Positions 26,537-27,088 of a DNA stretch of 37,153 nt are shown piece by piece. A program made the translations under genes and the position numbers. The stretch is from Candidatus Liptonbacteria bacterium. Its GTDB lineage: Bacteria > Patescibacteriota > Minisyncoccia > UBA6257 > 2-01-FULL-56-20. Location of the stretch: contig JACOXZ010000004.1 of assembly GCA_016182105.1 (NCBI GenBank), forward strand, positions 1-37,153. Reading direction: 5' to 3'. The stretch's first letter is position 1. Each line of letters starts with the position of its first letter. The notes beneath the pieces were generated by a model, which saw only the letters and a list, made by a program, of their open reading frames with translations, made no database searches and had not been told where the DNA came from.

Positions 26537-26965
26537 TTATCCACAGACGATATTTGACCAGTTCGTCAGCTGCGAACCAAAGAGCCCGCCCATAGCCCAG
26601 AAAAAAGTGTTCACGATGATAAACGAGCCAAGCGCGATGCCGATGCCAAAAAGCGTGCCGGTCAAGATTTTTTTGCCGCGCGAGATCTTTTCGGGCGATC
26701 CGGCCGAGACCAAAAGCATTATCCCGCCCCAGAGAAAGAGAACTGGCGCGATCGCGAAAAAGACCAGGGAGATGCCGAAATAAATCAACCTCTGAAAGAG
26801 AACTAAAATTTGGCAGATACTTGTGCAATCCGTGCCCGTGCAGGGAAGCAATGGGGGATTAGTCCCCCAGTAAGGAAACCCCGGCGCCTGCTGACCATGA
26901 ACCAGCGCTGGCGAAGAGAACGCGATGAGCGAAAATATCGCTAAACCTAAATAAATTTTTTTCAT
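26537..26965 (-). CDS. TrbC/VirB2-like small membrane protein, paralog 3, with a Cys-rich N-terminal extension after the signal peptide.
   Basis: MKKIYLGLAIFSLIAFSSPALVHG signal peptide, then LLVSAGSPEKISRGKK between two TM segments. Confidence 0.45.
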   Translation of the reverse strand: MKKIYLGLAIFSLIAFSSPALVHGQQAPGFPYWGTNPPLLPCTGTDCTSICQILVLFQRLIYFGISLVFFAIAPVLFLWGGIMLLVSAGSPEKISRGKKILTGTLFGIGIALGSFIIVNTFFWAMGGLFGSQLTNWSNIVCG

Positions 26966-27088
26966 CCCGTTAGAGATAGGAAACGCTCTGCGTTTCCGTT
27001 GATGTCATATAAGACCTTTGTTTGATGTAAGTGCATAATTACAAAACTAGTCTTAGTTCATAGATGATTAATCTCTAACGGGATTCAT
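26963..27088 (-). repeat. Copy 2 of the TIR-bounded element. Arms are CATCCCGTTAGAGATA… and …TAATCTCTAACGGGATTCAT. It spans from the solute-binding-protein gene stop (ATGA overlap) to the ATG of the VirB2-like gene. The left arm is followed by the hairpin GGAAACGC-TCTG-CGTTTCC.
   Basis: Same terminal 12-mer CCCGTTAGAGAT as copies 1 and 3 (which have CCCGTTAGAAGC and CCCGTTAGAAAC), and the same stop-to-ATG placement. Confidence 0.55.

Follow-up and report, generated by a model that had tools for sequence, protein, structure and literature searches.

We describe here a short inverted-repeat element in a contig of Candidatus Liptonbacteria bacterium (GenBank JACOXZ010000004.1, positions 1 to 37,153; this whole stretch of 37,153 nucleotides is called the window). 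The element, copy 2 of four in the window, separates the gene for an extracellular solute-binding protein from that for a type IV secretion system (T4SS) pilin/TrbC-like protein. With a probability of roughly 85%, copy 2 is a 119-bp non-autonomous mobile element belonging to a family that regenerates start codons. The element is short and lacks a transposase gene, has terminal inverted repeats and a target duplication fixed at 4 bp, and occurs in several copies that are present or absent at orthologous sites. By all criteria tested except a known autonomous partner, it is a MITE (miniature inverted-repeat transposable element). A preliminary description of the window had already proposed a non-autonomous mobile element here, and empty orthologous sites, the duplicated TGAA and the inverted repeat support that proposal. 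The span given at the time, 26963-27088, identified the right solute-binding-protein/pilin junction and is refined to 26965-27083.

Copy 2 is absent from orthologous junctions

Three relatives carry a solute-binding protein that is 83-84% identical to that of the window, including L123 (84%) and L122 (83%). The uninterrupted junctions in the latter two relatives read AGATGAAAAAAATT or AATAATGAAAAAAATT, and the pilin gene starts at or over the upstream stop codon in L123 and L122 (...GGCAGATGAAAAAAATTTATTTG and ...GGCAAATAATGAAAAAAATT). L123, which lacks the element, has ...GGC AGA TGA AAA AAA TTT ATT TG, a classic ATGA overlap; L122, also without it, has ...GGC AAA TAA TGA AAA AAA TT. The downstream proteins of L123 and L122 (78% and 67% identity) align with the window pilin from Met1 and begin, as it does, at MKKIYL. 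The preliminary description had asked whether the N-terminal extension HQRKRRAFPISNG is absent from orthologs; these alignments from residue 1 show that it is, and that the extension is not protein.

The window junction equals the empty site plus the element and a second TGAA, and nothing else. Because the L122 and L123 junctions are empty and TGAA stands on both sides of copy 2, the junction is an insertion with target duplication, and both reading frames are preserved. The ATGA overlap reported earlier on the upstream side is indeed present, but it is the upstream copy of the target duplication. Copy 1 is likewise missing from the aminotransferase/HtrA junction of L188 (...GAAATGAAAAAAAATT) and L189 (...GAAATGAGAAAAAACT), whose HtrA proteins are 90% and 87% identical to that of the window. 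Copy 3 is missing in L187, a 73% identical relative (AGATGAGCAATTTTTTGG), but three 81-89% relatives (L183, L184 and L185) carry it at the orthologous position. A conserved functional motif is an unlikely explanation for the flanking 4-bp repeats, since they vary with the local second codon.

On the plus strand, TCCCGTTAGAGAT at 26965-26977 and ATCTCTAACGGGA at 27071-27083 form a 13-bp perfect inverted repeat, which grows to 14 bp if one complementary pair from the target duplication is added. The subterminal hairpin reads GGAAACGC-TCT-GCGTTTCC and is surrounded on the sense strand by ACGG before and CCTA after. The RNA fold of copy 2 has a predicted energy of -38.4 kcal/mol, compared to -17.0 ± 3.0 for shuffled sequences (z = -7.1). 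The flanking genes lie on the minus strand, so that the bordering TTCA at 26961-26964 and 27084-27087 is TGAA on the coding strand. There, the solute-binding-protein gene ends in ...AGA TGA, followed by an A and the outer T of the distal arm and then by the CCCG core. The opposite terminus is ...CGGG-A, and its final A is base 1 of the pilin ATG. The ancestral ATG is kept by the A at 27088 and the upstream duplicate, and the ancestral GAGG Shine-Dalgarno sequence now precedes the ATG of a six-codon upstream open reading frame (ORF). Copy 2 has no coding capacity besides this ORF, and a promoter scan of the element and its surroundings found none within the element.

Table 1. Coordinates of copy 2 with its parts and neighboring genes, and of the other copies in the window.
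Feature	Position	Strand	Remarks
Copy 2, complete element (119 bp)	26965..27083	minus	Inverted repeat; stable fold; absent at L122/L123 junction
Copy 2 gene-proximal arm	26965..26977	minus	Minus strand 5'-ATCTCTAACGGGA-3'; terminal A at 26965 doubles as first base of the pilin ATG
Copy 2 gene-distal arm	27071..27083	minus	Minus strand 5'-TCCCGTTAGAGAT-3'
Copy 2 subterminal hairpin GGAAACGC/GCGTTTCC	26979..26997	minus	One base inward of the gene-proximal arm
Copy 2 downstream target duplication	26961..26964	minus	TGAA on minus strand; ATGAA with the A at 26965 forms pilin codons 1-2
Copy 2 upstream target duplication	27084..27087	minus	TGAA; holds the solute-binding-protein TGA stop
Six-codon upstream ORF	27068..27088	minus	ATG AAT CCC GTT AGA GAT TAA = MNPVRD*; made by the insertion
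Downstream gene, T4SS-pilin/TrbC-like protein (142 aa)	26537..26965	minus	Pfam PF18895; orthologs begin at the same Met
Upstream gene, extracellular solute-binding protein	27085..28380	minus	Pfam SBP_bac_1; stop within the upstream duplication copy
Copy 1, extended-palindrome type	9348..9462	minus	Aminotransferase stop/HtrA-like protease start; duplication TGAG/TGAA (3/4)
Copy 3, extended-palindrome type	31177..31293	minus	Start of 100-aa gene upstream of gyrA; duplication TGGG, perfect
Copy 4, 14-bp perfect arms (CCCCGTTAGAAAAT)	33533..33640	minus	Encloses tRNA-Pro(UGG) at 33551-33622; no target duplication

A family with conserved ends and a short target

The sequence CCCGTTAGA occurs exactly eight times in the 37-kb window, compared to 0.35 expected, and none of 100 shuffled sequences reached eight. 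All eight hits fall into four inverted pairs (9349-9461, 26966-27082, 31178-31292 and 33534-33639) whose members are 106-117 bp apart. Permitting one mismatch adds two hits, both unpaired, which is the chance level. The element folds in the window have z scores of -5.7 to -7.1.

We scanned a 596-Gb collection, taking one genome per species, for CCCGTTAGA-N80-110-TCTAACGGG and recovered at least 120 loci; 131 copies from at least 120 genomes were analysed. All family statistics are conditioned on the exact 9-mer in both arms, 80-110 nt apart, and are given among the matches listed. Most scan hits are real, because features outside this pattern, namely the outer pair, the direct repeat and the arm match, recur among them. 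The outermost base pair is complementary in 124 of the 131 listed copies (T..A in 68, C..G in 56). A perfect 4-bp direct repeat flanks 88/131, at least three of four positions match in 101/131, and almost none are found in shifted registers. The reconstructed target is R (93%) followed by T (93%), G/A, A/G and A/G, the best site being ATGAA, with no information elsewhere. Arm positions 10-12 are 91-95% complementary despite 19 different triplets, and complementarity beyond position 12 is about 20-40%; the modal perfect arm is 12 bases plus the outer pair. Family members are mostly 98-128 bp long, and shorter versions of 27-81 bp exist.

The family ends consist of YCCCGTTAGA and three arm-matched bases, and insertion is at R|TRRR. 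The preliminary description was right that the termini are conserved, but the fixed 12-mer it proposed gives way to this decamer with three variable bases. We rejected a 6-bp duplication, since copies with ATG on one side and GTG on the other, together with the 95% complementarity of the outer pair, put that pair inside the element. Three hits on viral contigs show no target duplication and a non-complementary outer pair, and look like chance.

Patescibacteria of many classes account for 77 of 121 loci (the 120 scan loci plus the window). The remaining carriers are metagenome-assembled genomes (MAGs) labelled Omnitrophota, Planctomycetota and Deltaproteobacteria, with a few others. Outside Patescibacteria the duplication is equally frequent (20/29) and starts are rare (4/29); the ends there are C..G and the duplication is mostly TAAA. 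The end sequence common to Patescibacteria, Omnitrophota, Planctomycetota and Desulfobacterota-type MAGs suggests an old or horizontally moving transposase. At L033 (7674-7895), two family members of different subtypes stand back to back in front of one gene with only ATTCAT between them, which looks like serial insertion at one start codon. We found no relevant literature report of the sequence, of such an element or of any MITE in Patescibacteria, and no described element whose terminal base and target duplication regenerate a start codon.

The terminal base completes the start codon of the downstream gene

An ORF of at least 60 codons, and often of hundreds, starts at the base right after ...CGGG in 70 of the 131 listed copies. 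Upstream of the duplicated codon the same frame is open for a median of only 9 codons in these copies, which therefore abut true gene starts; insertion at internal Met codons is rejected on the same ground. In seven copies the upstream duplicate retains ATG and the regenerated codon is GTG, so the terminal base belongs to the element. Within Patescibacteria, 58/64 T..A-ended copies (91%) lie at starts, compared to 8/30 C..G-ended copies (Fisher p = 7e-10). ATG is regenerated by the T..A-ended form and GTG by the C..G-ended form. Fifteen copies, window copies 1 and 2 included, split an ATGA overlap, and the upstream duplicate then gives the neighbor's stop.

Outside coding sequence, the window contains RTRRR sites at 13 starts, at 12 stops and at 86 other positions. 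Target preference together with loss of disruptive insertions predicts about 12% of elements at starts, and 53% are observed there (p = 2e-30). The genes behind the 70 copies fall into 104 Pfam families with at most two occurrences each, and we therefore rejected a regulon. They include topoisomerase I, ATP synthase alpha/beta, SecDF, phosphoglycerate kinase, a class II tRNA synthetase, ThyX and UvrD. Because unrelated essential genes stand behind the element, insertion does not block their expression.

The upstream ORF that runs from the ancestral start begins M-x-P-V-R; of 58 such ORFs, 52 terminate within the element and 6 overlap the real AUG as ATGA. With stops inside most elements and with orthologs sharing the same Met, a genuine N-terminal extension, or read-through from the upstream ATG, is rejected. 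In-frame element lengths are under-represented (13/70). A translational hop between the duplicated codons, suggested by copy 3 duplicates that match each other as TGAG in L183 and as TGGG in the window and in L184, fails as a general mechanism, since 13 of 58 T..A-ended start-codon copies no longer have an intact upstream ATG. We detected no ribosome-binding site before the regenerated AUG. Hexamers resembling a -10 box show no positional peak in the elements and are equally common on the antisense strand.

Throughout the window, many genes lack a Shine-Dalgarno sequence and are instead preceded by a TATAAT-like box, often with TG, that ends 6-9 nt ahead of the ATG; examples lie upstream of 26517, 31866, 33026(+), 22337(+) and 8062. 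The same spacing peak is seen in 576 ORFs of the Patescibacteria loci. These arrangements suggest that leaderless or near-leaderless mRNAs are widespread in these genomes. Enrichment of the elements at leaderless-type promoters is weak (26% vs 16%).

Polarity and constraint of the interior

The subterminal hairpin lies on the gene-proximal side in 33 copies and on the distal side in 8 (p = 1e-4), and its sense-strand context is ACGG-stem-loop-stem-CCTR. In exact register it is found in 22/70 copies proximally and 5/70 distally, with several Watson-Crick pair types per position, and its stems carry compensatory changes among oriented copies. Interior 5-mers are strand-specific (AGTCG 15 to 1, GGAAA 16 to 1, CAATA 19 to 3), and AGTCG is placed some 55-63 nt upstream of the ATG. 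The interiors show two architectures or more. Copy 2 is of the hairpin type, a subfamily widespread in other Patescibacteria. Copies 1 and 3 are of the extended-palindrome type, in which CGCGATC-like blocks prolong the stem across a 2-5-nt bulge. The earlier view of the interiors as diverging copies of one sequence is not upheld, since copy 2 represents a separate hairpin-type subfamily with strand-specific motifs.

The orthologous copies 3 of the window, L183 and L184 differ at 2-6 of 117 positions (95-98% identical). In the adjacent 100-aa gene, 12-25 of 100 third codon positions differ (75-88% identical; p = 3e-5 to 4e-3). Homogenisation, or repeated insertion from one master, is an unlikely source of this similarity because the window's own copies 1 and 3 are no more than about 70% alike. 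Copy 3 is flanked on both sides by TGAG in L183 (578-695), while the duplicates in the window and in L184 (864-981) both read TGGG. This joint change of the two duplicates could reflect chance (rough estimate 0.03-0.05) or duplicates that are kept alike.

Copies that enclose tRNA genes, and other repeats in the window

The tRNA-Pro(UGG) gene in copy 4 is separated from the arms by spacers of 4 nt and 5 nt. In a Spirochaetia MAG (L100, 431-539), tRNA-Val(GAC) is enclosed by the same inverted repeat. We compared 52 metagenome contigs with the tRNA-Pro core for flanking arms. L171 (~3697-3797) has an intact right arm and the same GTGAAG flank, its left side being cut by the contig end, and the arms have decayed in L153 (~8990-9100) and in the syntenic L146 (~380-520). 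Identical or near-identical tRNA-Pro genes without arms are found in L127, L131, L132, L135 and L152. A whole tRNA gene lies between arms in two to three lineages, which looks like an old state that is decaying in some lineages. Derivation of the element interiors from tRNA was rejected: of 149 elements examined with ARAGORN, only the two noted as enclosing tRNA genes gave a tRNA call. Copies 1-3 have no tRNA-like Rfam match, and an Rfam 15 covariance search of the window, at the gathering score and with E up to 10, returned only four tRNAs and left these copies unmatched.

Other intergenic elements of about 100-140 bp with perfect inverted repeats lie at 18312-18450, 21176-21322 and 33336-33435, with ends AAGGCTAAGAGATTTTTT, ACCCCGCYCTAATTTTGCT and TCCCGCCTATTGTT. 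Like the main family, two of the three start with (Y/A)CCCG, and none shows a clear target duplication; the element at 21176-21322 overlaps the GTG start of an NYN-domain gene. A palindrome of about 45 bp (33141-33224) takes in the 3' third of tRNA-Phe (33199-33273, minus) as one of its arms; its center is a terminator-like 18-bp perfect hairpin at 33159-33200, and an inverted T-arm copy lies just downstream of the gene. A tRNA-like hairpin, GGCGGGCTATAGTGTAATGGTAGCACCCGC, lies at ~33690-33730 (minus) and is called by neither ARAGORN nor Rfam. A tandem GGTTTTAGGTTATAG x2 is found at ~33745-33775, between the divergent tRNA-Pro and tRNA-Arg genes. In relatives, the spacers between gyrA and the solute-binding-protein gene (L179 1389-1500, L181 1401-1500) hold other long hairpins that end at the ATG, of the GAAACATG repeat type and the AAAGTGAAAA.../...TTTTCACTTT type. 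The gyrA of L181 (1-1400) also carries an intein (Intein_splicing), which the window gyrA lacks. Phosphoglucomutase is split in the window into two overlapping ORFs in different frames (domain I at 13049-13468, domains II-IV at 12154-13074); a frameshift, a pseudogene or an assembly error could explain this.

Candidate mobilizing enzymes

The 4-bp staggered duplication points to a DDE-type enzyme, and we infer that the elements would be mobilized in trans by such a transposase. The window contains a truncated tyrosine recombinase (21744-22337, 197 aa) with an N-terminal SAM-like domain and the first half of the catalytic domain; it adjoins the repeat element at 21176-21322. IS200-like Y1 genes, which resemble the REP-associated tyrosine transposase (RAYT), occur in 4 of 121 element-bearing loci, 0.3-6 kb from the elements and in no flanking arrangement. 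These genes are bordered, and apparently interrupted in frame, by their own, different GC-rich REP-like hairpins (ACTTGGGTGC..., CAAGGTTCAACCTTG and CAAGGGGACACCTTG), and we rejected a RAYT link for this reason. Examples are L037 230-1040, L102 3540-4270 and L124 7270-8050, with hairpins ACTTGGGTGCnnnGCACCCAAGT, CAAGGTTCAACCTTG and CAAGGGGACACCTTGCGC.

Proposed mechanism and alternative explanations

We propose that copy 2 integrated into the ATGA overlap of the solute-binding-protein gene and the first pilin gene. A 4-bp staggered cut at integration would have duplicated TGAA, and the terminal A of the element together with the duplicated TG would have rebuilt the pilin ATG at the base of the 13-bp terminal stem. 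The TGA stop of the upstream gene would have been retained in the upstream duplicate. The ancestral ATG and the GAGG Shine-Dalgarno sequence would now head the six-codon upstream ORF that runs into the element. If the element is co-transcribed with the flanking genes, its arms should form an RNA stem. Translation behind the element might then depend on ribosomes that melt the stem while reading the upstream ORF, on a stem that places the native initiation signals beside the new AUG, or on stem cleavage that yields a near-leaderless mRNA.

Several observations weigh against a mobile element of this family as the explanation. The 18 fixed bases of the search pattern at 31 spacings predict about 270 chance matches in 596 Gb. 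Among end pairs (exact and 2-mismatch) that are spaced 0.4-4 kb and show a duplication, no autonomous copy was found in the window and 1.2 Mb of loci, and no transposase domain (Pfam) was detected in the 30 scanned of 32 gene-sized window ORFs. The tRNA-enclosing copies have spacers of 2-8 nt and lack a target duplication. A fixed interior polarity (33 to 8) and an asymmetric target are odd for a two-fold symmetric transposase complex. The start-codon excess of about 4.5-fold is unexplained by sequence preference alone. Finally, arm positions 10-12 match between the arms in 85% of copies, and at one site copy 3 changes 4-6 times more slowly than neighboring third codon positions; both findings suggest a constraint that goes beyond selfish persistence.

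These last points could be accommodated if the element were a domesticated mobile leader cassette, which arrived by transposition and was then selected as a working part of the mRNA at the start codon. The stem and proximal hairpin would control or enable translation from the regenerated AUG or mark a cleavage site. This idea, to which we give appreciable though clearly less than even credence, extends the mobile-element explanation and does not exclude it. It would account for the 95-98% identity of orthologous copy 3 next to third codon positions at 75-88%, the covariation of arm positions 10-12, the 33 to 8 polarity toward the gene with strand-specific interior motifs, and the essential genes behind the copies; leaderless-type initiation also looks common in these genomes. 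However, the constraint rests on one orthologous site, repeats are no more intact in start-codon copies than in the others (p = 0.11), promoter-like hexamers have no positional peak, copies 1 and 2 are missing in close relatives, and the downstream genes share no common function. We consider it rather unlikely that the 13-bp stem is both a functional RNA device and a transposase-binding end, which would make an insertion that lands on a start codon self-neutralising. If this were so, the stem would hand on initiation signals, be opened by ribosomes on the MxPVR ORF, or be cut by a double-strand-specific RNase, and the stems around tRNA-Pro and tRNA-Val would mark precursor processing. The element would then be the DNA-transposon counterpart of an intron in bacteria, under purifying selection once fixed.

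The remaining explanations dispense with transposition of this kind. The very stable folds (z = -5.7 to -7.1), the covarying arms, and stems that enclose tRNA-Pro (window and L171) and tRNA-Val (the Spirochaetia MAG) recall a structured RNA or a processing stem of local origin and without mobility, for instance an RNase III site between cistrons and flanking tRNA precursors. Presence and absence at orthologous junctions with an exact local 4-bp duplication contradict it, no Rfam family matches, dozens of unrelated genes carry the element, and most tRNA-Pro orthologs lack the stem, which is decaying in L146 and L153; we regard it as barely credible. No better placed is a REPIN-like hairpin doublet spread on single-stranded DNA by a single-copy REP-associated tyrosine (HUH) transposase. 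Hairpin formation, intergenic position and subterminal hairpins would fit, as would an orientation bias to genes, typical of single-strand transposition, and the Y1 genes in 4/121 loci. Yet the 4-bp repeats track the local target and so are true duplications, which HUH elements do not make, and the Y1 genes, 0.3-6 kb away, have their own hairpins, so that this explanation is largely refuted. It is also very improbable that the element is a substrate of site-specific recombination, either an integron attC-like site or an invertible promoter segment flipped by a recombinase. Such a substrate would explain imperfect palindromes of about 100 bp between genes, with a GTTAGAR/YTCTAAC core like attC R boxes, and a repeat that is conserved around a variable interior and stands immediately in front of genes; some copies, a minority, are flipped, and a truncated tyrosine recombinase lies at 21744-22337. 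However, attC sites (RYYYAAC...GTTRRRY) have the opposite of the GTT...AAC order seen here, insertion is evident from the target duplications and the empty sites, and the neighbors are core housekeeping genes 2-17 kb apart rather than cassettes. No integron integrase or invertase was found beside the elements, and the same locus was never seen in both orientations; only different loci differ.

Consequences for annotation and for small genomes

Insertion by such elements bears directly on gene annotation, since they create false N-terminal extensions and misplaced starts in Patescibacteria MAGs. The ORF listing runs two of three window genes into the element from TTG codons, and the rule ...TCTAACGGG|A/G-TG fixes the true start. 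Patescibacteria genomes are about 1 Mb and are commonly regarded as poor in mobile elements. By completing a start codon with its own terminal base, such a transposon can occupy the single position of a densely packed operon where it harms neither neighbor, a distinct survival strategy in such small genomes. For translation, the arrangement places essential genes behind a structured insert of about 115 nt without a Shine-Dalgarno sequence.

Comparison with known systems

The ends of IS1380/piggyBac elements begin CC(C/T)..TAGA (piggyBac CCCTAGAAAGATA, ISEcp1 CCTAGATTCT), with 4-5-bp duplications that are TTAA for piggyBac. The present ends, (Y)CCCGTTAGA(A/G), and 4-bp duplications are similar, a likeness of a few bases that serves as a lead only. 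In contrast to piggyBac, the present target is an asymmetric RTRRR rather than TTAA, and no such transposase was found near any copy. Integron attC sites, too, are intergenic imperfect palindromes (60-140 bp) whose conserved 7-nt core is related to GTTRRRY. The present core order is inverted (GTTAGAR ... YTCTAAC), which rules out attC identity, and the elements have target duplications, no integrase and housekeeping neighbors. REPINs resemble the family as hairpin-forming repeat doublets of similar size in intergenic positions. They lack target duplications, and copies of the repeat itself border their RAYT gene; neither is true of the present family.

Rickettsia palindromic elements (RPE) are selfish palindromes, about 100-150 bp long, which a reduced genome tolerates at positions where the host protein keeps its function. 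RPE lie in frame inside coding sequences and are translated, whereas the present elements lie at a gene boundary, outside the protein. Such in-frame fusions of repeats have been reviewed (PMC3184786).

The Correia elements (NEMIS) of Neisseria are likewise MITEs, about 100-155 bp long, that have terminal inverted repeats, make a short target duplication and are gene-adjacent like the present family; they are co-transcribed, and in the RNA their repeats fold into a hairpin, which RNase III cleaves. Their repeats measure about 26 bp, the duplicated target is TA, and the elements are confined to one genus. In contrast, the present family has a 13-bp repeat, a 4-bp TRRR duplication, carriers in several phyla and start-codon placement. 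We know of no start-codon targeting or regeneration by Correia elements. Some Correia copies carry promoters, and a point on IHF is likewise stated (PMC3184786). Neisseria REP2 and Borrelia IR sequences are repeats that lie just upstream of many genes and bring the ATG (PMC3184786). REP2 lacks terminal inverted repeats and provides both a promoter and a ribosome-binding site, whereas the present element gives only the first base of the start codon and the target duplication the rest; neither a ribosome-binding site nor a positioned promoter was detected in the present elements. On this comparison, the nearest systems in behavior are the Correia elements, as co-transcribed hairpins, together with Neisseria REP2 and the Borrelia repeats, as sequences that bring an ATG.

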